A stretch of 32,271 bases of DNA from a virus. Lineage: Duplodnaviria; Heunggongvirae; Uroviricota; Caudoviricetes. The notes under the pieces were generated by a model that was given only the letters and a program-made list of their open reading frames with translations, had not been told where the DNA came from and did not search any database. This document shows, piece after piece, positions 22,601 through 30,569 of the stretch. The stretch's first letter is position 1. Each line of letters begins with the position of its first letter. Location: the IMG/VR virus record IMGVR_UViG_2711768166_000002; one strand, 5' to 3'. Made by a program: the position numbers and the translations under genes.

Positions 22601-24052
22601 TCAGAATCCTCCTTTCTTCTTGGACTGCGGTTCCTCGCGTTCACGTCGGCGCATTTCAGCAGACTGTTGGTCTGTGTCATAAATAGCGCCATTTGCCTGA
22701 ATGCAATACACCGTGCCGGTATTGCCATGACGATTGAGACGAAGGATTAGTTCGGTTTCACCAGGTGGAACACTGTCATCAAAAGCGCCTTCACGATGGA
22801 TCCCAACCCAATAATCGCAATCCTGTTCAATCTGCCCTGTATCTCGTGAGTCACTTGGTAATGGGCGTTTATTGGTTCGGCTTTCCAGTGCGCGGTTAAG
22901 CTGCGTCAGAAGCACAACAACGCAATCAAGCTCTTTGGCAAGGTTCTTCAGTCCTTTGGTGATCATGCCGTAAGCAAGGTCGTTGCGATCGGCCTTCTCA
23001 GCGGTCATTAGTGTCAGGTAATCGACCAGAATCATGCCAACACATCCTTTTTCTCGCTTGATTCGACGGCTTTCGCTGACGATTTGAGCCAGAGATAATC
23101 CCGGCGTGTCGTCGATGTAAAGCATGTCGATTTCACTCAAGCGATTAGCTGTTTCGATCGCCCTGTTGAAGTCACCATCGTAATCACCCTGATAGCCGTC
23201 ATCAGCGTCATTTGTCGCCGGAAGGTAAAAAATATTCGGGTTAACACCAGACTTCTGCCCTACCAGTTTTTCCAGTATCTGATCACCTGGCATTTCAAGG
23301 CTGAACATCAAAGCGGGCTTTTTCTCATGCACTGCGCAATTGATTGCCATCTGGCTGTATAGCGTCGTTTTCCCCATCTTAGGGCGAGCGCCAATGACAA
23401 ACAGAGAGCCTTTCACCAGTCCTTTCGGTGACAGCATCCTGTCCAGCGATGGGATCCCTGTGCTCATTCCTCGTTGTTCGCCTGACGGATCAAATCGCTT
23501 CTCAAGGTCGCTAACCCAGTCTTCCATGACCTCACCAAATGAGCGAAGGCCGCGACGCGATCCGGTTTTTGCATGGTCTGTCAGTTGCGTGAAAATCGCC
23601 TGAATAGCTTCGTACTTCTGCGTTGCAGTCATTCCGTTGCGGGAATAGAGCAATTCCGTCGCTTCAGTCATGCGGTTGATGGCGTAGCGTTCCATTGCGG
23701 TTTCACGAACCTGCATTGCATAGGCAACGATGTTTGCTGCGCTTGGCGTGTTCTTTGCGATCTCAGCGATATAAGCAAAACCGCCAACAGACGCCGTTAA
23801 CGATTTACGCTCCAGTTCATCGAAAAGCGTCAGGCCATCTACTGGCTTTTGCTCCCGGTGCATTCTGGTTATCTCTTCGAAAAGGATTTTGTGTGGTCGG
23901 CTGTAAAATGAATCAGGCTTCAGCATCGCCAGAACTTTCTGGACGCGCTCACTGCTGTCATCATCCAGAAGCAATCCACCAATCACCGCCTGCTCTGCCT
24001 CGATGCTATGGGGCGGCGCATAAAAATTATCGGTCATCGTGTTCACCCTCAC
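22601..24052 (-). CDS. Replicative DNA helicase, DnaB family
   Basis: 483 aa. DnaB N-terminal motif PPHSIEAEQAVIGGLLLD and Walker A GARPKMGKTT. True start may be the Met at 24037. Confidence 0.9.
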   Translation of the reverse strand: MRVNTMTDNFYAPPHSIEAEQAVIGGLLLDDDSSERVQKVLAMLKPDSFYSRPHKILFEEITRMHREQKPVDGLTLFDELERKSLTASVGGFAYIAEIAKNTPSAANIVAYAMQVRETAMERYAINRMTEATELLYSRNGMTATQKYEAIQAIFTQLTDHAKTGSRRGLRSFGEVMEDWVSDLEKRFDPSGEQRGMSTGIPSLDRMLSPKGLVKGSLFVIGARPKMGKTTLYSQMAINCAVHEKKPALMFSLEMPGDQILEKLVGQKSGVNPNIFYLPATNDADDGYQGDYDGDFNRAIETANRLSEIDMLYIDDTPGLSLAQIVSESRRIKREKGCVGMILVDYLTLMTAEKADRNDLAYGMITKGLKNLAKELDCVVVLLTQLNRALESRTNKRPLPSDSRDTGQIEQDCDYWVGIHREGAFDDSVPPGETELILRLNRHGNTGTVYCIQANGAIYDTDQQSAEMRRREREEPQSKKKGGF

Positions 24053-24917
24053 GAACTTTCAGGTAGGTATTGTCGTTAAGCAGGAAATCAAATCCCTTTT
24101 TGTGCCAGACGGTTCCGCGTTGATGGTTTGGGCGTTCTTCGAACATCCATCGGCAATTTTCGCCTACGTAGCTCAAATAATTTCTCCAGTCCTGCATCGT
24201 GAACCCATGCCCGTCAAGCTGGCGGGTTATCACTCCGGCTTTGCGCCAGAACGTTCGGATCTGGTTTTTACGCTTGTCATTCAGTGCGCGGATTCTTGGC
24301 GCTTCAGGAAGGATTTCGTGGTAAGCATCGACAACATCCTGACAGCTAACGGAAGGTTTTTTCTTGTCAGACTTTTTGTCTGCTGTGGCACTCTCTAATA
24401 CGTCAGTATTAGAGATATTATTTATATTATTGTTTATGGACAACCGTTGGACAACCGTTGGACAATCTCCGCTGAGAGCCGCGCCATTACTGGTGTTTGC
24501 GTTGGACAACCGTTGGACAACCGTTGGACAATTTTTTGCCTGAAAATCGTCATATTTAACGATTGTAAACAGGCTAAATTTCTTCCCCATCGAGCAAATA
24601 TTAAGCATCCCTTTCGACTCAAAAGTCCGTAATAAGCTCCGAACTTTGTTGTCGGGGATGAATGTTTCTCTGACCAGCGACGGGCGTCCAGTTATCATCT
24701 GACCGCGATCAACAGTTATCGGACCGATATCCGTATTGACGACAGTAGATTCGTGATTAGCCTTGAGGATTAAGTGAAGCCAAAGATGTACTGCCTGAGA
24801 GTCCTTATAGAGCCTGCTGTCCATAAACTGGCGGTGTATAGAGACATACCCCATACTGGATGCCTCCTGATGTTGTACAGGGTTATGCCTGTAATCAGCT
24901 AACTTAACGACGCCCAT
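24027..24917 (-). CDS. Replication initiator (O-like) containing the origin iterons in its coding sequence
   Basis: 296 aa with internal peptide repeats CPTVVQRLSN encoded by the direct DNA repeats. An alternative start at 24854 (MGYVSIHRQF...) has a better AGGAGG RBS. Confidence 0.8.
   Translation of the reverse strand: MGVVKLADYRHNPVQHQEASSMGYVSIHRQFMDSRLYKDSQAVHLWLHLILKANHESTVVNTDIGPITVDRGQMITGRPSLVRETFIPDNKVRSLLRTFESKGMLNICSMGKKFSLFTIVKYDDFQAKNCPTVVQRLSNANTSNGAALSGDCPTVVQRLSINNNINNISNTDVLESATADKKSDKKKPSVSCQDVVDAYHEILPEAPRIRALNDKRKNQIRTFWRKAGVITRQLDGHGFTMQDWRNYLSYVGENCRWMFEERPNHQRGTVWHKKGFDFLLNDNTYLKVREGEHDDR
24395..24535. repeat. Replication origin: two clusters of about 2.5 direct 11-bp repeats (GGACAACCGTT) flanking a 38-bp spacer, with an adjacent AT-rich region
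   Basis: Repeats at 24438..24465 and 24504..24531; AT-rich tattagagatattatttatattattgtttat at about 24408..24437. Same logic as lambda ori inside the O gene. Confidence 0.75.
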
Positions 24918-25752: not shown

Positions 25753-26403
25753 ATGAAAACTCAATTGATGGGAGAGCGCATTCGCGCTCGGAGAAAAGAA
25801 CTCAAGATCAGGCAGGCCGCACTTGGAAAGATGGTCGGCGTGTCTAATGTTGCCATATCTCAGTGGGAACGCTCTGAGACAGAGCCAAATGGAGAGAATC
25901 TTCTCGCCCTGGCTAATGCGTTGAAGTGTTCCCCTGACTATCTGATGAAAGGAGAGGAAAGTCTTTCAAACATTGCCTATCACAGTAGGCATGATCCAAG
26001 AGGGTCATACCCTCTGATTAGCTGGGTGAGCGCAGGATGCTGGATGGAAGCTGTAGAACCATATCATAAGCGTGCAATAGATAACTGGTACGATACAACC
26101 GTAGACTGTTCAGACGATTCGTTTTGGTTGGACGTGAAGGGAGACTCAATGACGGCTCCGGCCGGTCTCAGTATCCCTGAAGGAATGATAATACTCGTCG
26201 ATCCTGAAGTAGAGCCGCGTAACGGGAAACTGGTAGTTGCAAAGCTCGAAGGAGAAAACGAGGCAACTTTCAAGAAGTTAGTTATTGATGCAGGCAGGAA
26301 GTTTCTAAAACCACTTAACCCACAATATCCGATGATCGAGATCAACGGGAACTGCAAAATCATCGGCGTAGTTGTCGATGCAAAACTAGCAAACCTTCCA
26401 TAA
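25753..26403 (+). CDS. c2: C2 prophage repressor (P22 immC type, LexA-like autocleavage domain)
   Basis: 216 aa, MKTQLMGERIRARRKELKIRQAALGKMVGVSNVAISQWERSETEPNGENLLALANALKCSPDYL..., near-identical to P22 C2 as recalled. Confidence 0.95.
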   Translation: MKTQLMGERIRARRKELKIRQAALGKMVGVSNVAISQWERSETEPNGENLLALANALKCSPDYLMKGEESLSNIAYHSRHDPRGSYPLISWVSAGCWMEAVEPYHKRAIDNWYDTTVDCSDDSFWLDVKGDSMTAPAGLSIPEGMIILVDPEVEPRNGKLVVAKLEGENEATFKKLVIDAGRKFLKPLNPQYPMIEINGNCKIIGVVVDAKLANLP

Positions 26404-26427
26404 GGGGGCATTCGCCCCTTTTTTTTA
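26404..26427 (+). terminator. Intrinsic terminator after c2
   Basis: Stem GGGGC/GCCCC with loop ATTC followed by T8. Confidence 0.75.
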
Positions 26428-26439
26428 TTTCCTTTAAAA

Positions 26440-26530
26440 ATCAAAGCCAAACTTAAGTTACGAAAGAAAATTTAAGTTTTCTTCAAAAATACTCTTGACC
26501 ATTAATTAAAGAGATCTTAAATTTAAGCCA
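26440..26530 (+). promoter_or_regulatory. OL operators and PL promoter
   Basis: -35 TTGACC (26495..26500), 17-bp spacer, -10 TAAATT (26518..26523). Operator-like palindrome AATTAAAGAGATCTTAAATT overlaps the promoter. Confidence 0.65.
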
Positions 26531-26569
26531 TCAGCAGGACGCTGGTAGCCAAACGGAACAGATTGGCAG

Positions 26570-26610
26570 GCTCTTTAACATTGATGGGATTGTCCCGCCG
26601 AAATGCGGGA
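26570..26610 (+). promoter_or_regulatory. nutL (boxA GCTCTTTAA, boxB UCCCGCCGAAAUGCGGGA)
   Basis: Same boxA/boxB pair as nutR; located between PL and N. Confidence 0.6.
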
Positions 26611-26717
26611 ACCAAAGAGTAGTTGGCTTTGGGGTGACGTGAAGTGCAGCTGCACGACGGCAACCGGAAGATAAGCACCCGGCGCGTCACCGCCAAAGTC
26701 AATCATCGGAGGTCAAC

Positions 26718-27017
26718 ATGACAGTAGTCATTACATATCTGGCTGACGATAACGCCAGAAATCGCCGCAGAGCACGCAGACAGGCTCAACGTGAACAGGC
26801 AATGCAAGAGCAGCGACTGGCGCGAAAAATTGCGCTAAAGCTCTCTGGTTGCGTCAGAGCAGATAAAGCAGCATCGCTCGGAAGCCTTCGCTGCAAGAAG
26901 GCAGAAGAAGTCGAGCGTAAACAGAACCGTATTTACTACCGCAAGCCACGCAGTGAAATGGGTGTGACTTGTGTTGGTCGCCAGAAAATGAAATTAGGCA
27001 GCAAACCACTTATTTGA
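26718..27017 (+). CDS. N: Antiterminator N
   Basis: 99 aa. N-terminal Arg-rich motif NARNRRRARRQAQRE; C-terminus RIYYRKPRSEMGVTCVGRQKMKLGSKPLI resembles the lambda/phage 21 N C-terminus as recalled. Confidence 0.85.
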   Translation: MTVVITYLADDNARNRRRARRQAQREQAMQEQRLARKIALKLSGCVRADKAASLGSLRCKKAEEVERKQNRIYYRKPRSEMGVTCVGRQKMKLGSKPLI

Positions 27018-27025
27018 GGTGATAT

Positions 27026-27289
27026 ATGGACAAGAAAATTAAATCATTGAAGCCAGGAATTGTTATCAGAGACATAAGCGGTTATTACGATACAGATACA
27101 TATGATATTTTATATGTGCATGCAGATGGAAAATGTCAGTATTCGAACGACATTTTTAATAATAAAGGTGATGCCGAAATTGCTGCCACCACAGTTAATA
27201 AAGAGTTAGTAGCTAATGAGTCGTGGGATTATTTTATGCCATCATCCACTTCTATGAACTGGAAAGTGGTTTTGTACATTCCATCATAA
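27026..27289 (+). CDS. Hypothetical AT-rich accessory protein (87 aa) in the ral/sieB slot
   Basis: ORF track; visibly AT-rich; no recognisable family. Confidence 0.55.
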   Translation: MDKKIKSLKPGIVIRDISGYYDTDTYDILYVHADGKCQYSNDIFNNKGDAEIAATTVNKELVANESWDYFMPSSTSMNWKVVLYIPS

Positions 27290-27330
27290 TTGTAGCTGCC
27301 GTTCAAAAATGAAAGTAAATCTAACATCAC

Positions 27331-27356
27331 AGGCCGCATAGTCGGCCTTCTTTTGG
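27331..27356 (+). terminator. Intrinsic terminator between the two accessory genes
   Basis: Stem aggccg/cggcct with loop catagt followed by tcttttgg. Confidence 0.6.
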
Positions 27357-27402
27357 TATAAACAACAGAATAAACACTGCACTGAATTATTTGAGGTGAG
27401 AT

Positions 27403-27873
27403 ATGACAAAATCATGGAGCGTACCTTTTCCTGAATCAGAAACTGAACATGATGGAATGCCTGTTTTCTGGAGATTCCAAGCGACAGTTGAAGAAGATGG
27501 GATCAAAATATTCGCACTTCAATATATAGCTTTTCATCAGACAGAGCATTATGCATGGTTGGTTCCTGCGCATTGGATTGTTAATTTTAAACCAGCACCA
27601 AATCAGTGGTTACAGGAATGGAAACAAAGGAGAAATAGATATGCAATTAAGAAAGTAGCAAAAAATGCAGAAAGATCTTTTGCATTCCCAACGAAGAAAC
27701 TTGCCATTGAAAGTTTATTGCGCCGGAAGAAATACCATTTGATGCGAATCAAACAAGATTTAGCTGTTGTATCAACTCTTGTTGATGGGATGAAGAATAT
27801 TGATACATCAACACCAGATATTGAATATAACTTTGGACACAACCAAGAAACAGAAAATTGGGTGTTTTATTAG
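27403..27873 (+). CDS. Hypothetical AT-rich accessory protein (156 aa), Trp/His-rich N-terminal half and basic C-terminal half
   Basis: ORF track; same translation-initiation context as the preceding gene; no recognisable family. Confidence 0.6.
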   Translation: MTKSWSVPFPESETEHDGMPVFWRFQATVEEDGIKIFALQYIAFHQTEHYAWLVPAHWIVNFKPAPNQWLQEWKQRRNRYAIKKVAKNAERSFAFPTKKLAIESLLRRKKYHLMRIKQDLAVVSTLVDGMKNIDTSTPDIEYNFGHNQETENWVFY

Positions 27874-27977
27874 TACGAATAAGCACTGTGTATTCATTCC
27901 AACGAGTGAATACACGGAGCAATGTCGCTCGTAACTAAACAGGAGCCGACTTGTTCTGATTATTGGAAATCTTCTTT

Positions 27978-28003
27978 GCCCTCCAATGTGAGGGCGATTT
28001 TTT
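27978..28003 (+). terminator. Intrinsic terminator after the 156-aa gene
   Basis: Stem gccctc/gagggc with loop caatgt followed by gatttttt. Confidence 0.6.
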
Positions 28004-28015
28004 GATGGAGGATAT

Positions 28016-28984
28016 ATGAGTGAAGTAACAGATTTAGTTGTTATTGAAAAAGCAAATGCAATGACTGTATTTCAGTCTGCCGACCAGATTGAAGAAATCC
28101 TTCAAAAGGTTGAACGTGAAGTTATGTCCTTTGTGCCTGATATCACAACGGCAAAGGGCAGAAAGGAGATCGCTTCTCTGGCGTATAAAGTTGCGCAGAC
28201 GAAAACATATCTCGATGGTCTTGGCAAAGACCTTGTTGCTGAACTGAAGGAAATTCCAAAGCTAATTGATGCCAACCGCAAGACAGTGCGCGATCGCCTT
28301 GATGAACTGAAAGCCAAGGCGCGCCAGCCTCTTACTGATTATGAGGAAGAACAGGCGCGGATTAAAGCCGAAGAAGAAGCTAAGGCAGCAGCTGAAGCTC
28401 TCGCAAAGCAAATTGAGTCTGACCATGAAATAGCGATTTTGATGGATCGCGAATTTGACCGCCAAAGAGAAGAGGCAAGACTCAAAGCGGAGCAGGAAAA
28501 GCGAGAGCATGAAGAACGCTTACAAAGAGAAGCTGAAGAGAAAGCCAGAGCTGAAGCCGAAGCAAAGGCAAAAGCCGAAATTGAAGCAGCAGCAAGGCGA
28601 GAAGCAGAAGCTAAGGCCGCAGCGGAACGTGCAGAGCGTGAACGCATTGAAGCCGAGCAACGAGCACAGCGCGAAGCAAAAGAGGCAGCAGAACGAGCTG
28701 AAAGAGAAAAGCAGGCGGCAATTGAAGCAGAACGCCGAAAAGCACAGGAGGAGGCTGAACGAATCCGGCGCGAGGCTGAAGCAAAAGAGCAAGCCAGAAT
28801 AGCAGAAGAAAAAAGAATCAAGGACGAAGAAGAGCGTAGAGCAAAGGATAAAGCTCACCGGAAAGAAGTAAATAACAAAATACTTGCTGACCTTATCAAG
28901 GTTGGCGCACCAGAAGATGTTGCTAAAAATATCATAACAGCCATCGTAAAAGGCGAAGTATTCGCAACAAAAATAACCTACTAA
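28016..28984 (+). CDS. Coiled-coil protein with a long Ala/Glu/Lys/Arg-rich low-complexity central region (TolA-domain-II-like composition)
   Basis: 322 aa. GGAGG RBS. Central region of about 175 aa is AEAKAKAEIEAAARREAEAKAAAERAERERIEAEQRAQREAKEAAERAEREKQ-like repeats. Confidence 0.65.
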   Translation: MSEVTDLVVIEKANAMTVFQSADQIEEILQKVEREVMSFVPDITTAKGRKEIASLAYKVAQTKTYLDGLGKDLVAELKEIPKLIDANRKTVRDRLDELKAKARQPLTDYEEEQARIKAEEEAKAAAEALAKQIESDHEIAILMDREFDRQREEARLKAEQEKREHEERLQREAEEKARAEAEAKAKAEIEAAARREAEAKAAAERAERERIEAEQRAQREAKEAAERAEREKQAAIEAERRKAQEEAERIRREAEAKEQARIAEEKRIKDEEERRAKDKAHRKEVNNKILADLIKVGAPEDVAKNIITAIVKGEVFATKITY

Positions 28985-29358: not shown

Positions 29359-29670
29359 ATGATGATTCTGACTCTGAATGATAAGCGTGAAATATCGCAA
29401 ATAATCGCAAGTTTTACTGATGAAGATTACGAACGAATCAACAGTGAAGTTGATCGTCTCTGCAAACGTTGCGACCCAATAAGCGAAATGCTTCGCTCAT
29501 ATAAACCAGATGAACACACTAAGGACGCTATCGACTGGCTGGAAGATGATGACTGTAACTATCAGGAAAAAGCCGCTGAATGGTTCTGGGATGCAATAAC
29601 CGAAAGAGTTAAGGCTGAATATGCCTTCGCAATATTCAAACGCAGACACATTTTTGGAGAAGCTGCATGA
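29359..29670 (+). CDS. Hypothetical acidic protein (103 aa) immediately upstream of recT; possible anti-RecBCD (Abc2-like) by position only
   Basis: ORF track; synteny only. Confidence 0.5.
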   Translation: MMILTLNDKREISQIIASFTDEDYERINSEVDRLCKRCDPISEMLRSYKPDEHTKDAIDWLEDDDCNYQEKAAEWFWDAITERVKAEYAFAIFKRRHIFGEAA

Positions 29671-30569
29671 GCAATATCGTTGAATTCGTTAAACAGCAGG
29701 AGCAGTTATTCTGCGGAGCATTGACTGAACAGACGGTGACATGGGCTAAGGAAAGCCAGTTTGCAATTCAGTATTTCCAGAAAAACGATTACCTGGCTAA
29801 AACAGCACTGGCAAATCCAACCAGCGCACAGAACGCCATCATCAATGTTGCGGCGATCGGCATCACCTTAAACCCGGCCAGCAAACTGGCTTATCTGGTT
29901 CCTCGCGACGGCATGGTGTGCCTTGATATCAGTTACATGGGATTACTTCATCTTGCGCAATCGACAGGATCAATTAAGTGGGGGCAATGCAAACTGGTGT
30001 ACTCAAACGACACCTATGAATCAAATGGCCTTGATTCAGCACCAACCCACAAATACAACGCATTTGGTGAGCGAGGCTCTATTGTTGGAGGTTATTGCAC
30101 GGTTAAAACAGCAGATGGTGACTACCTGACTGAAGAAATGAGTCTGGCAGAAATTAAAGCTGTGGAAGCAACGAGCAAGGCAAAGAATGGACCGTGGAAA
30201 ACATTCTGGGAAGAGATGGCGCGTAAAACAATAGTTAAACGCGCCAGCAAATACTGGCCTAAAGCCCAGCGACTGGATAATGCCATTCACCTTCTTAACG
30301 AAGATGAAGGTATGCATCAGGAACCAGTTATGCCGCACAAATCAGAGGAAGATATCCGCGAAGATGAACGGAAACGCCAGCAGGAAATAATGGATAAAGC
30401 ACAACTTCTTTGCGATGAAATGGCTCAGGCAGAAAACATGGATGATTTGAAGCGATATTTTGCAGAAGCATATCGCCTGACATCTGGAATGAAATTGCAG
30501 CAGAACGTACAAGCCATTTACGCAGAATGCAAAGCGAAACTGGAGGTTGCCAGTGAGCAAACTGTATGA
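29667..30569 (+). CDS. recT: RecT-family single-strand annealing recombinase
   Basis: 300 aa. Motifs ASKLAYLVP and GPWKTFWEEMARKTIVKRASKYWP match RecT (GPWVTHWEEMAKKTAIRRLFKYLP) as recalled. Confidence 0.9.
   Translation: MSNIVEFVKQQEQLFCGALTEQTVTWAKESQFAIQYFQKNDYLAKTALANPTSAQNAIINVAAIGITLNPASKLAYLVPRDGMVCLDISYMGLLHLAQSTGSIKWGQCKLVYSNDTYESNGLDSAPTHKYNAFGERGSIVGGYCTVKTADGDYLTEEMSLAEIKAVEATSKAKNGPWKTFWEEMARKTIVKRASKYWPKAQRLDNAIHLLNEDEGMHQEPVMPHKSEEDIREDERKRQQEIMDKAQLLCDEMAQAENMDDLKRYFAEAYRLTSGMKLQQNVQAIYAECKAKLEVASEQTV

Follow-up and report, generated by a model that had tools for sequence, protein, structure and literature searches.

Layout of the region downstream of N

The stretch of DNA analysed here (hereafter, the window) comprises 32,271 nt of the Caudoviricetes record IMGVR_UViG_2711768166_000002 from IMG/VR, and is an HK620-like (P22-like) prophage with a lambdoid immunity and pL region. 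The antitermination gene N, whose TGA lies at 27015-27017 according to the ORF list, encodes a protein with a lambda-like C-terminus (..GRQKMKLGSKPLI before the stop, where N of lambda ends ..GRQKIKGKSIPLI). It is followed by two accessory genes, each preceded by a copy of the same short linker, so that the order is N, linker copy 1, ORF87, a shared terminator, a spacer, linker copy 2 and ORF156. The features of the region, all on the + strand, are the following:

26718..27017, +, N antitermination gene, 99 aa (phrog_271 'anti-termination protein N-like', E 4.8e-37)
26997..27028, +, linker copy 1, full element of ~32 nt, following N (from the sequence)
27010..27022, +, 13-nt motif, copy 1 (exact sequence match)
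27026..27289, +, ORF87 (MDKKIK..), accessory gene (phrog_33140, E 8.9e-49)
27331..27354, +, predicted intrinsic terminator, tL1-like, hairpin AGGCCGCATAGTCGGCCT and T-run (terminator scan)
27355..27386, +, conserved spacer (..GGTATAAACAACAGAATAAACACTGCACTGAA) from the terminator to motif copy 2 (comparison with other loci)
27368..27379, +, imperfect direct repeat, left copy, GAATAAACACTG (from the sequence and by comparison with the uninterrupted spacer-block arrangement)
27387..27405, +, linker copy 2 (TTATTTGAGGTGAGATATG): motif, 3-nt spacer and ATG, with no N relic
27387..27399, +, 13-nt motif, copy 2 (exact sequence match)
27403..27873, +, ORF156 (MTKSWSV..), accessory gene (phrog_1636, E 2.7e-112)
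27877..27888, +, imperfect direct repeat, right copy, GAATAAGCACTG, just past the ORF156 stop (from the sequence)
27883..28003, +, conserved structured intergenic block (homology edges, terminator scan, fold z = -5.4)
28016..28984, +, ORF322, next early-left gene, with a strong SD of its own, GGAGGATATATG (ORF list and SD energies)
29667..30569, +, RecT-family single-strand annealing protein (PF03837 RecT, E 2.5e-33)

The two copies of the imperfect repeat are identical at 11 of 12 positions and flank the segment containing motif copy 2 and ORF156. The intergenic block, made up of a hairpin (27883-27920) and a terminator with its T-run (27976-27997), flanks the cassette region on the right and is a mosaic module in its own right. 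The recT gene is situated 2.3 kb downstream of the linker region. Searches of Pfam, NCBIfam and PDB sequences gave no function for ORF87, ORF156 or ORF322, ORF87 having no match at all in Pfam or NCBIfam. Rfam gave no match for the whole window at the gathering threshold, nor for 26380-28100 at E<=1; hence, no described RNA family in Rfam, including prophage sRNAs of the AgvB/AsxR type, matched the linker, the spacer or the downstream block.

The linker and its occurrence in the window

The earlier note drew attention to an identical 13-nt motif overlapping the N stop codon and repeated at the same spacing before both accessory genes, and this observation is confirmed. TTATTTGAGGTGA occurs exactly twice in the window (27010-27022 and 27387-27399, + strand) and nowhere else, the single near match being located on the - strand at 6311-6323 with 2 mismatches; copy 1 contains the TGA of N, and both copies end 3 nt before an ATG, that of ORF87 for copy 1 and that of ORF156 for copy 2. 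The repeat extends through the start codon with one mismatch in 19 nt (TTATTTGAGGTGA[T/G]ATATG), and no other direct repeat within 26700-28100 ranks above it.

Comparison with other loci indicates that the real unit is larger, an element of ~32 nt, [G/C]GCAGCAAACCAC-TTATTTGAGGTGA-K-ATATG, which includes a 13-nt stretch of the last codons of N and has the 13-mer as its 3' half. Its 5' part corresponds to the last codons of N together with the stop. In copy 1, the element consists of GGCAGCAAACCAC (N codons G-S-K-P), TTATTTGAGGTGA, TAT and ATG, and the codons L-I-stop within TTATTTGAGGTGA overlap the Shine-Dalgarno (SD) sequence GAGGTGA. It can be read as a lambda-type N end (..GGC AGC AAA CCA CTT ATT TGA), an SD of 7-8 nt (GAGGTGA[T]), a 3-nt spacer and ATG, with GAGG 6 nt from the ATG and, in copy 1, the N stop inside the SD, 8 nt before the ATG. 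The context of copy 2 is non-coding: no ORF ends there, TGA ATT ATT TGA is found in frame upstream, and ORF87 stops at 27289, 114 nt before the ATG of ORF156.

GAGGTGA(T) can pair with 7-8 nt of the anti-SD, placing 16S complementarity next to a conserved ORF start. The duplexes calculated for the two copies (-12.9 and -11.5 kcal/mol) rank 2 and 5 among 113 ORF starts, whose median is -4.0, and the surrounding RNA is unstructured (z = 0.01 and -0.75). Both copies would thus share a very strong, unstructured predicted ribosome-binding site (RBS). With z values of about 0, the idea that the linker folds into a hairpin or another structure hiding its SD was rejected, and a frameshift or slippery-site reading of TTATTTG was dropped on inspection, as it is not an X XXY YYZ heptamer.

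What is not random about the repeat is its position rather than the mere recurrence of a 13-mer. The window contains 31 repeated 13-mer words, equivalent to ~15 independent repeats, where ~8 repeated exact 13-mers are expected (32271^2/2/4^13), and the shuffle test is weak (3 matches at <=2 mismatches vs 0.88 expected). Nonetheless, when exact in-register runs before the start were compared over 14,365 pairs of ORFs of >=50 aa, the ORF87/ORF156 pair reached 13 nt and the next best 10; GAGGTGA itself is found only 3 times in the window. On a larger scale, the pattern of 18 specified bases has 66 occurrences in 596 Gb of species-representative genomes, almost all of them in unrelated taxa.

Partners and breakpoints in related phages

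Of the two objections that the earlier note had raised to its own proposal, that similar 13-mers are common by chance holds for this window, and that the motif does not recur at gene boundaries in related phages proved false: hundreds of related phages and prophages have it at this gene boundary, next to many different genes. The element is present in more than 180 viral contigs and ~190 phage records (188 phage records carry the same 32-mer at >=80% coverage), its 19-mer TTATTTGAGGTGANATATG in more than 120 IMG/VR loci among the matches listed. Lambda, HK97, H-19B and 933W-like Stx phages are among the model phages that carry it. The HK620 record has no boundary-sequence features, and its N, of the phage-21 type, ends differently and has no linker.

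To its left the element has at least 14 unrelated contexts, and downstream of it at least 12 genes, likewise unrelated to one another. When its 221 distinct sites are classified by what flanks them, 23 left and 21 right classes result; a lambdoid component takes up 14 of the left and 12 of the right classes, with 37 cells filled, and the cycle rank of this partner graph corresponds to at least 12 exchanges with their breakpoint inside the element of <=32 nt. For instance, ORF156 and MEEQANK149 each occur behind N-linked as well as spacer-linked copies, all four combinations being present. The 9 occurrences in unrelated phages all have 1:1 partners.

Two sets of 80 loci not chosen by the motif gave a similar picture. 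Among those picked by N alone, 65 carry the motif, and the gene that comes first behind it is one of at least 8 different ones; among those picked by the ORF156 protein alone, 79 carry it, behind at least 6 different left contexts. In these 79 loci the 13-mer has 0 variants, and the 13-nt relic upstream of it about 12. Some cassettes join N through another SD, either as TTATTTGAG abutting AGGAATTAATATG (9/80 N-chosen loci) or as TTATTTGAGG abutting ACTGATA.. (2/80); these alternative joints appear to have been made right at the stop codon, without use of the whole linker.

As non-coding relics, the 13 nt of N codons are kept in at least 6 different contexts, following other genes, terminators or another N allele; the relics have 11-23 open codons and often no start codon (that of H-19B measures 42 nt). 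Since these relics persist where they do not code, the linker copies share descent and do not result from convergence, and the comparative data likewise show that the two copies in the window are homologous.

The earlier note had also asked whether exchange breakpoints coincide with the motif, and they do. Homology on the N side ends at 27018-27040 in 71/80 N-chosen loci, in 62 of these just past the ATG (27030-27040), with HSPs ending recurrently at 27030 or 27033. Homology on the ORF156 side begins exactly at 27387 in 71/80 ORF156-chosen loci, and the same start is obtained against relatives with ORF156 directly after N. Other edges are also recurrent, such as the terminator (homology starting at 27330-27333) and the block 27883-28003 (starting at 27875-27883 and ending at 28001-28003, in more than 120 HSPs). 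In this sense, the linker is one of several joints, not a unique one, the terminator hairpin at 27331, the spacer and the block being equally frequent breakpoints.

The usual order in relatives is N, linker and ORF156; in most of them, including H-19B, no other gene separates ORF156 from N or from a relic of N, although in the H-19B record it is unannotated. Copy 2 travels with ORF156, and 27029-27386 (358 nt; the body of ORF87, terminator and spacer) is thus one extra cassette bracketed by the two copies. ORF87 is found behind the linker in a few loci only (L137, L165, L081). The terminator hairpin follows at least 7 unrelated ORFs and is a right-hand boundary common to many cassettes; together with the spacer (27331-27386) it appears to form a unit with which the linker works. 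In ~90 other loci, the spacer runs straight into the block that starts at ~27883 here. The left junction of copy 2 (CACTG-AA abutting TTATTTGA) could not be derived by a simple crossover between the two common arrangements. Besides, at least 18 loci are arrays of 2-3 copies arranged as tandem terminator-spacer-linker-ORF units, and in one of them a truncated duplicate of ORF156 is found, a probable signature of unequal crossing-over.

Explanations for the junction and comparison with known systems

Given the anatomy, conservation, combinatorial partners, breakpoint positions and SD strength observed, we consider it probable that a strong-RBS linker doubles as short homology for cassette shuffling, with short-homology exchange and RecT-type catalysis inferred. 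The 13-mer would be the core of a portable linker of ~32 nt heading the variable accessory region of the lambdoid early-left (pL) operon, where it would provide a strong, unstructured RBS to any cassette placed behind it. With the linker constant and its flanks unrelated, it would be the sole homology between phages differing on both sides; annealing proteins (RecT here, Red-beta or Erf in relatives) or RecA could recombine within it, and cassettes would thereby be swapped, added or deleted. The RecT encoded by the phage itself would be the likely catalyst. It is accepted that exchange can proceed through short conserved sequences in the flanks (PMC2327257; PMC3029335). Phage recombinases of the Rad52-like type drive the formation of mosaics where homology is short or diverged, and the reported MEPS is 23-27 bp for Red-beta, compared with 31-34 bp for RecA (PMC3945230). 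With its ~32 nt, the linker reaches or exceeds the shortest length at which Red-beta is reported to pair efficiently. The two copies in the window share 13 exact nt (18/19), below the reported MEPS, and direct exchange between them would therefore be inefficient. Recombination inside the element is suggested by the exchanges of the partner graph (at least 12), the arrays and the truncated duplicate. The recombination hotspot for cassette swapping proposed in the earlier note is supported by the varied partners and by breakpoints at the edges of the motif, where "hotspot" is to be read as a term derived from counts of combinations among database sequences that are not independent samples.

The motif might alternatively be kept only as an optimal translation-initiation region (an AU/CA-rich leader, a 7-8-nt SD and optimal spacing) which is inherited with each gene and marks gene boundaries with no causal role in recombination, illegitimate joints being sorted by selection for expression. 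The SD pairing among the strongest in the window, the unstructured RNA and the greater uniformity of the SD half over the relic half are in line with it, as are the use of other SDs at the same place by some cassettes and the independent origin of the same 19-mer as RBS in unrelated bacteria and phages, often right after a terminator T-run. Selection for a strong RBS would by itself also preserve the 3' half of the linker. Against this reading, illegitimate joints would not repeatedly set the ATG of at least 12 unrelated genes at the same nucleotide behind an identical 16-nt leader, and would not produce one and the same 13-nt N relic in 6 or more non-coding contexts. Left and right partners occur in all four combinations with no other homology in their flanks, and the tandem arrays and truncated duplicate point to unequal homologous exchange; altogether, we find this explanation unlikely. 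The shared translational coupling element that the earlier note offered as its second reading is conceivable for copy 1 only: here, and wherever the element is linked to N, the SD contains the N stop, and ribosomes ending at the TGA of the motif could reinitiate at the ATG 8 nt further on, tying the accessory gene to N. For copy 2, at which no ORF ends, it fails, and in many relatives what precedes the element is a relic of 11-23 open codons, often without a start codon. Coupling cannot therefore conserve the element in all its contexts, and as a general explanation it is decidedly improbable.

A footprint of a mobile element or of site-specific recombination, with the 13-nt repeats as target-site duplication or att/attC-like sites, could be suspected from the 358-nt segment bracketed by direct repeats and from the resemblance of the region to a cassette array. 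We give it very little credit: the bracketed segment contains no terminal inverted repeats, transposase or integrase, its only ORF being that of 87 aa; the linker has no attC-like hairpin (z about 0); and "empty" sites (N followed by ORF156) already hold the sequence once at the N stop, which means that it pre-existed and was not duplicated on insertion. The transposon or target-site-duplication reading was rejected on these grounds. A chance 13-mer repeat, for which the ~15 independent repeats and the non-significant shuffle test could be quoted, has a practically negligible probability in view of the best in-register match of all ORF pairs occurring at adjacent gene starts, the extension to 18/19 nt, and the homology demonstrated across hundreds of loci; the ORF-start ranking, the ORF156-anchored loci and the partner graph refute it.

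The shuffling linker that we favor bears on a debated question, namely whether the mosaics of temperate phages arise from illegitimate joints or from recombination at short stretches of homology; no trace of homology is seen in the flanks of ~70% of mosaics (PMC3945230). A 32-nt element close to the pairing minimum of Red-beta, at a heavily shuffled junction with unrelated flanks, makes this question directly testable. Linker and shared terminator also provide a precise handle to catalogue the small accessory genes that are the first to be expressed upon infection or induction, and the linker corrects annotation, as for ORF156 in H-19B. More tentatively, and with the balance rather against it, the region past N in lambdoid phages may work as an integrase-free cassette array, in which a discrete 5' linker of MEPS size (N relic and RBS) and a common 3' terminator and spacer frame unrelated genes (likely for anti-defence or exclusion), these elements being partly maintained as portable homology arms for the capture, duplication and loss of cassettes by RecT, Red-beta or Erf. 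In that case, it would be possible to recover the entire accessory-gene pool of these phages with the linker as bait.

Several known systems resemble this arrangement in part. Integron arrays also contain promoterless, unrelated small genes with the same short junction and one upstream promoter, the number of units here being 1-3. Unlike in integrons, the linker has no attC-type imperfect palindrome or matching inverted repeats, no integron integrase was seen near the region in the ORF list or by domain search, exchange is here inferred to be homology-driven, and circular cassette intermediates are not in evidence. Copy 1 is comparable to coupled gene pairs with stop/SD overlap, as the SD of the following gene contains the N stop; copy 2, like many relic-linked copies, differs from such pairs in having no translated upstream ORF. 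Morons, reportedly described by Juhala et al. and Hendrix et al. in 2000, are said to be single accessory ORFs between conserved genes with their own intrinsic terminator, and a moron is defined with its own promoter. The cassettes described here are likewise single accessory ORFs inserted between conserved genes and followed by an intrinsic terminator. In the window this terminator is predicted at 27331-27348, and no sigma-70-like promoter was found on the + strand of 27029-27402 by a consensus-only scan. The cassettes use a shared RBS in the N-antiterminated pL transcript.

A degenerate relative of the linker is found in lambda itself, where the orf28-ral leader carries CGCAATCCAC-TATTTAAGGTGATATATG directly before orf28, matching 26/32 positions with the same SD, spacer and ATG. 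It has one deletion and TGA changed to TAA, and lies ~660 bp past the real stop of N (which ends CCT CTT ATC TAG), with sieB in between.

The closest comparison is with the boundary sequences of lambdoid phages. The modular theory of these phages is credited to Susskind and Botstein (1978), and Clark et al. in 2001 reportedly described in HK620 short conserved boundary or linker sequences at lambdoid mosaic joints. The literature searched contains the general concept and no description of the N-junction linker. The bsq1-5 features of the CUS-3 GenBank record are regulatory intergenic regions of 64-502 bp between functional modules, none of them at the 3' end of N; the linker differs from them in measuring only ~32 nt, in operating at the level of single-gene cassettes and in consisting of a coding relic and an RBS, and its identity with a bsq feature was rejected, these being other and longer regions. 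Boundary sequences have been proposed to allow homologous exchange of modules (PMC3029335; PMC2327257). Like them, the linker is short and conserved amid non-homologous neighbors, lies at a gene or module boundary and has breakpoints coinciding with its edges. It introduces no new mechanism or principle, and clearly exemplifies a kind of mosaic joint that is already known.

The repeat and its operon

The 13-nt sequence TTATTTGAGGTGA occurs on the + strand at 27010-27022 (copy 1) and 27387-27399 (copy 2), with no further exact copy in the whole window and a sole near match, on the opposite strand, with two mismatches. The earlier note's claim that an identical motif precedes both accessory genes (ORF87 and ORF156, named by their length in amino acids) at equal spacing was confirmed at both positions, and the repeat runs on through the ATG as TTATTTGAGGTGA[T/G]ATATG (18/19 identical), this 19-nt version being the top direct repeat of the region. 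That note had also weighed against itself that similar 13-mers might be common by chance and that the motif might not recur in relatives; the former holds (about 15 independent exact 13-mer repeats in the window, one such repeat being unremarkable alone), the latter is false. A shuffle control for 13-mer recurrence in the window was not significant. The non-random property of the repeat is its position: among 14,365 ORF-start pairs, the longest in-register exact run 5' of the start is the 13 nt of this pair (runner-up, 10), and the window has GAGGTGA at three places only.

Features of the region in the window
from 25753, +, cI-type repressor (HTH and S24 peptidase)
26495-26523, +, pL-like promoter
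26718-27017, +, N, 99-aa ORF, N-type antiterminator (phrog_271, E 4.8e-37)
27010-27022, +, motif copy 1; includes the N stop TGA (27015-27017), 3 nt 5' of the ORF87 ATG
27026-27289, +, ORF87, 87-aa ORF
27331-27348, +, intrinsic terminator between ORF87 and ORF156
27387-27399, +, motif copy 2; 3 nt 5' of the ORF156 ATG
27403-27873, +, ORF156, 156-aa ORF
between ORF156 and ORF322, +, structured block ending in a second terminator (27976-27997)
29667-30569, +, RecT (PF03837, E 2.5e-33), among the genes after ORF322

The order on the + strand is thus cI, pL-like promoter, N, ORF87, terminator, ORF156, structured block, ORF322 and further genes including RecT. Across two thirds of its length, the remainder of the window shares 96% identity with phage HK620; together with the gene order, this bears out the assumed setting, an early-left operon in a lambdoid prophage of the P22-like/HK620-like kind. 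The 551 bp around the repeats match a prophage in the chromosome of E. coli strain E1 (poultry, NZ_CP104503.1) at 100% identity; at least 80% of this segment is covered in only 7 of 5,426 complete E. coli genomes, and parts of it in 1,446, the exact two-copy arrangement being rare. Elsewhere in the window, four copies of an 11-nt-period repeat (TGGACAACCGT..; 24437-24530) within a 296-aa minus-strand ORF (24027-24917) are probably origin iterons in an O-like replication gene.

Anatomy and partners of the linker

When the sites were sorted (among the matches listed), the conserved stretch was found to reach further left, as [G/C]GCAGCAAACCAC-TTATTTGAGGTGA-K-ATATG, a linker of ~32 nt. Its first 21 nt are, in the N gene of the window, the codons G-S-K-P-L-I-stop, this C-terminus being homologous to the end of lambda N (..GKSIPLI*), where the codons differ. 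GAGGTGA(T) is a 7-8-nt Shine-Dalgarno (SD) sequence, whose duplex with the anti-SD reaches -12.9 kcal/mol in copy 1 and -11.5 in copy 2 (ranks 2 and 5 of 113 ORF starts; median -4.0); the RNA around the linker is unstructured (z = 0.01 and -0.75), and by these measures the element is a strong, accessible ribosome-binding site (RBS). At ORF156-anchored loci the 13-mer is invariant (79/79) and the 13-nt relic, a stretch of N codons kept without being coding, is variable in about 12/80, a difference that points to constraint on the 3' half from its RBS role, the relic half being largely historical.

An IMG/VR scan for TTATTTGAGGTGANATATG returned at least 120 loci, and a second one, with the N-type preceding base excluded, 66. 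Among the matches listed, 221 distinct sites fall into 23 left and 21 right sequence classes, the lambdoid component comprising 14 left and 12 right classes with 37 combinations present. Among the left classes are full-length N and a diverged allele of it, the terminator-spacer context of copy 2, and N relics that no longer code and that follow other genes, terminators or phage-21-type N; those on the right are mutually unrelated genes, including ORF156, orf28-ral, MEFHESA83, MEEQANK149, MEALVVE107, MERKFEI62 (named by first residues and length) and ORF87. Among these matches, ORF156 and orf28 have eight left partners each and the N context has eight right partners; all four combinations of N-linked or spacer-linked with ORF156 or MEEQANK149 were found, and motif position 14 (the G/T polymorphism) assorts with left and right partners alike. 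Since the flanks lack other homology, the cycle rank of the partner graph means that 12 or more exchanges had their breakpoint within the element, which is at most 32 nt long. In unrelated phages the 19-mer occurs nine times, always with a 1:1 pairing of left and right, and its 66 matches in species-representative genomes (596 Gb) are spread over unrelated taxa, with E. coli and E. albertii as the only enterics; the 19-mer thus can arise independently as a generic strong RBS, but common descent and spread are behind its abundance and shuffling in lambdoid phages.

Two samples of 80 loci each were retrieved by the N protein alone and by ORF156 alone. The full motif follows N in 65/80 N-retrieved loci, before at least eight different first genes. 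In nine others a 207-aa gene is joined directly after TTATTTGAG, using another SD, in two another gene follows TTATTTGAGG, and three have an alternative N end; the remainder are one TGA-to-TAA motif variant and one locus ending just past the motif. The gene string downstream of N differs in almost every locus. ORF156 is preceded by the motif in 79/80 loci, with at least six different left contexts. By local BLAST of the window against both sets, homology ends on the N side at 27030 or 27033 (59/80 loci) and starts on the ORF156 side at exactly 27387 (71/80), with further pile-ups at 27330-27333 (terminator start), 27384 (spacer end), 27875-27883 and 28001-28003, and a separate comparison showed this pattern too. 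The element is therefore conserved independently of its flanks and coincides with exchange breakpoints; the motif search and alignment that the earlier note proposed thus support its main reading, a boundary at which gene cassettes are swapped, with recurrence at gene boundaries across relatives.

An alternative N 3' end (loci L150, L158, L171 and L396; ..CCACTGTATGAGGGGTGA(K)(M)TATG) encodes P-L-Y-E-G-stop versus P-L-I-stop, and L396 has it directly linked to ORF156, the common sequence being reduced to GGTGAGATATG. Window-type N N-termini (MTVVITYLADDNARNRRR..) are followed by varying C-termini (..KSKQLTAR, ..SIPAYYD, ..SIPLI) in L112, L214, L013, L109 and others, which implies recombination inside N too.

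Relics, extra cassettes and arrays

At many loci the 13-nt N-codon stretch 5' of the motif is non-coding, with only 11-23 open codons and often no start codon, and lies behind ral and a terminator, other small ORFs or phage-21-type N genes. H-19B (AF034975; locus L261) has its own N stop, then 42 nt of non-coding sequence left over from a lambda-type N 3' end, the motif and ORF156, its real N being phage-21-type; the intact 156-aa ORF (MTKSWSV.., 2543-3013) has no annotation in the record. In lambda, a degenerate copy (26/32) lies directly 5' of orf28-ral, ~660 bp past the real N stop, with sieB between. The 32-mer is present at 80% coverage or more in 188 phage records, including HK97, Stx phages, mEp234, HK633, HK106 and Salmonella BTP1. 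Its commonest partner is the 28-aa lambda orf28 (MEEEFEEFEEH..; L001 6818-6920, lambda (L260) 1272-1358 and many IMG/VR loci), followed by ral (MTTTI.., 66 aa) wherever the downstream gene was read (lambda, L152, most N-anchored loci). The same orf28 has no annotation in CUS-3.

Compared with the commonest arrangement (N, linker, ORF156, e.g., H-19B), 27029-27386 (358 nt; ORF87 body, terminator and spacer) is one extra cassette between the two copies. The terminator hairpin and spacer (27331-27386) form a conserved unit found 3' of at least seven unrelated cassettes, homology starting at the hairpin's first base. In about 90 loci the spacer is continuous with the block that starts near 27883 in the window; against that arrangement, copy 2 and ORF156 (27385-27888) are an insertion, whose end GAATAAGCACTG matches GAATAAACACTG (27368-27379) at 11/12 positions. 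Two or three copies occur as tandem terminator-spacer-linker-ORF units in at least 18 IMG/VR loci; the three linker copies of L214 (10903-11693, minus orientation), with a truncated 54-aa ORF156 copy between two terminator-spacer-linker units, look like the product of unequal crossing-over. A gene annotated as "Nmad5 family putative nucleotide modification protein" lies beside an N 3' fragment in some other E. coli genomes (among H109, H117-H119), and is possibly another cassette.

The 133-nt intergenic block 27874-28006, with three hairpins including the terminator 27976-27997 (MFE -46 kcal/mol, z = -5.4) and no Rfam match, acts as an independent mosaic module in more than 120 related loci, and may be a structured RNA or a cluster of terminators. 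At the next junction (28003-28018; L261 3163-3178) the break again lies just 5' of a strong SD and the spacer is similar, GATGGAGGATATATG in the window (block to ORF322) and GACGGAGGAAATATG in H-19B (block to gp17), so RBS-level joints may be general in the early-left operon.

Mechanism and known systems

The joints would have arisen by homologous pairing within the ~32-nt element. The minimal efficient pairing segment is 23-27 bp for Red-beta and 31-34 bp for RecA (PMC3945230), so the full element is at or above the former and near the latter; where homology is short or diverged, mosaic formation is chiefly the work of phage recombinases of the Rad52-like type (Red-beta, RecT, Erf; PMC3945230). 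RecET works at low frequency even with 5-13 bp, and short conserved flanking sequences are an accepted route as exchange sites (PMC2327257). The prophage itself encodes RecT. Exchange between copies 1 and 2, deleting ORF87, should be rare, because they share only 13 exact nt, below the pairing thresholds.

If the motif were only an RBS and the joints were made illegitimately, its strong SD would be expected, but the shared features would not be accounted for: unrelated genes starting at the same nucleotide behind one leader, a common non-coding relic, and the arrays. The translational coupling also suggested by the earlier note is structurally possible at copy 1, where the N stop lies inside, but not at copy 2 or at relic-linked copies, where no translated ORF ends. 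The data exclude both a transposon footprint and an attC-like site, as inverted repeats, structure and a recombinase are lacking and "empty" sites already have the sequence; chance is excluded by the 14,365-pair ranking, the ORF156-anchored sample (79/80) and the partner combinations.

The concept nearest to this element comes from modular theory, with its short conserved sequences at boundaries or as linkers (Susskind and Botstein, 1978, and Clark et al., 2001, both as given in PMC3029335 and PMC2327257). No description of this 32-nt element was found in the literature covered, which did not extend to Clark et al. (2001), and the element is absent from HK620. The boundary sequences of the CUS-3 record are longer (64-502 bp, versus ~32 nt) and regulatory intergenic, with none at the N 3' end. 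The cassettes are like morons that lack promoters, and like integron cassettes that lack an integrase and attC. The linker, of some practical value and with a directly testable mechanism, belongs to a known type of feature, of which it is a clean and well-populated case, and is not a new principle.
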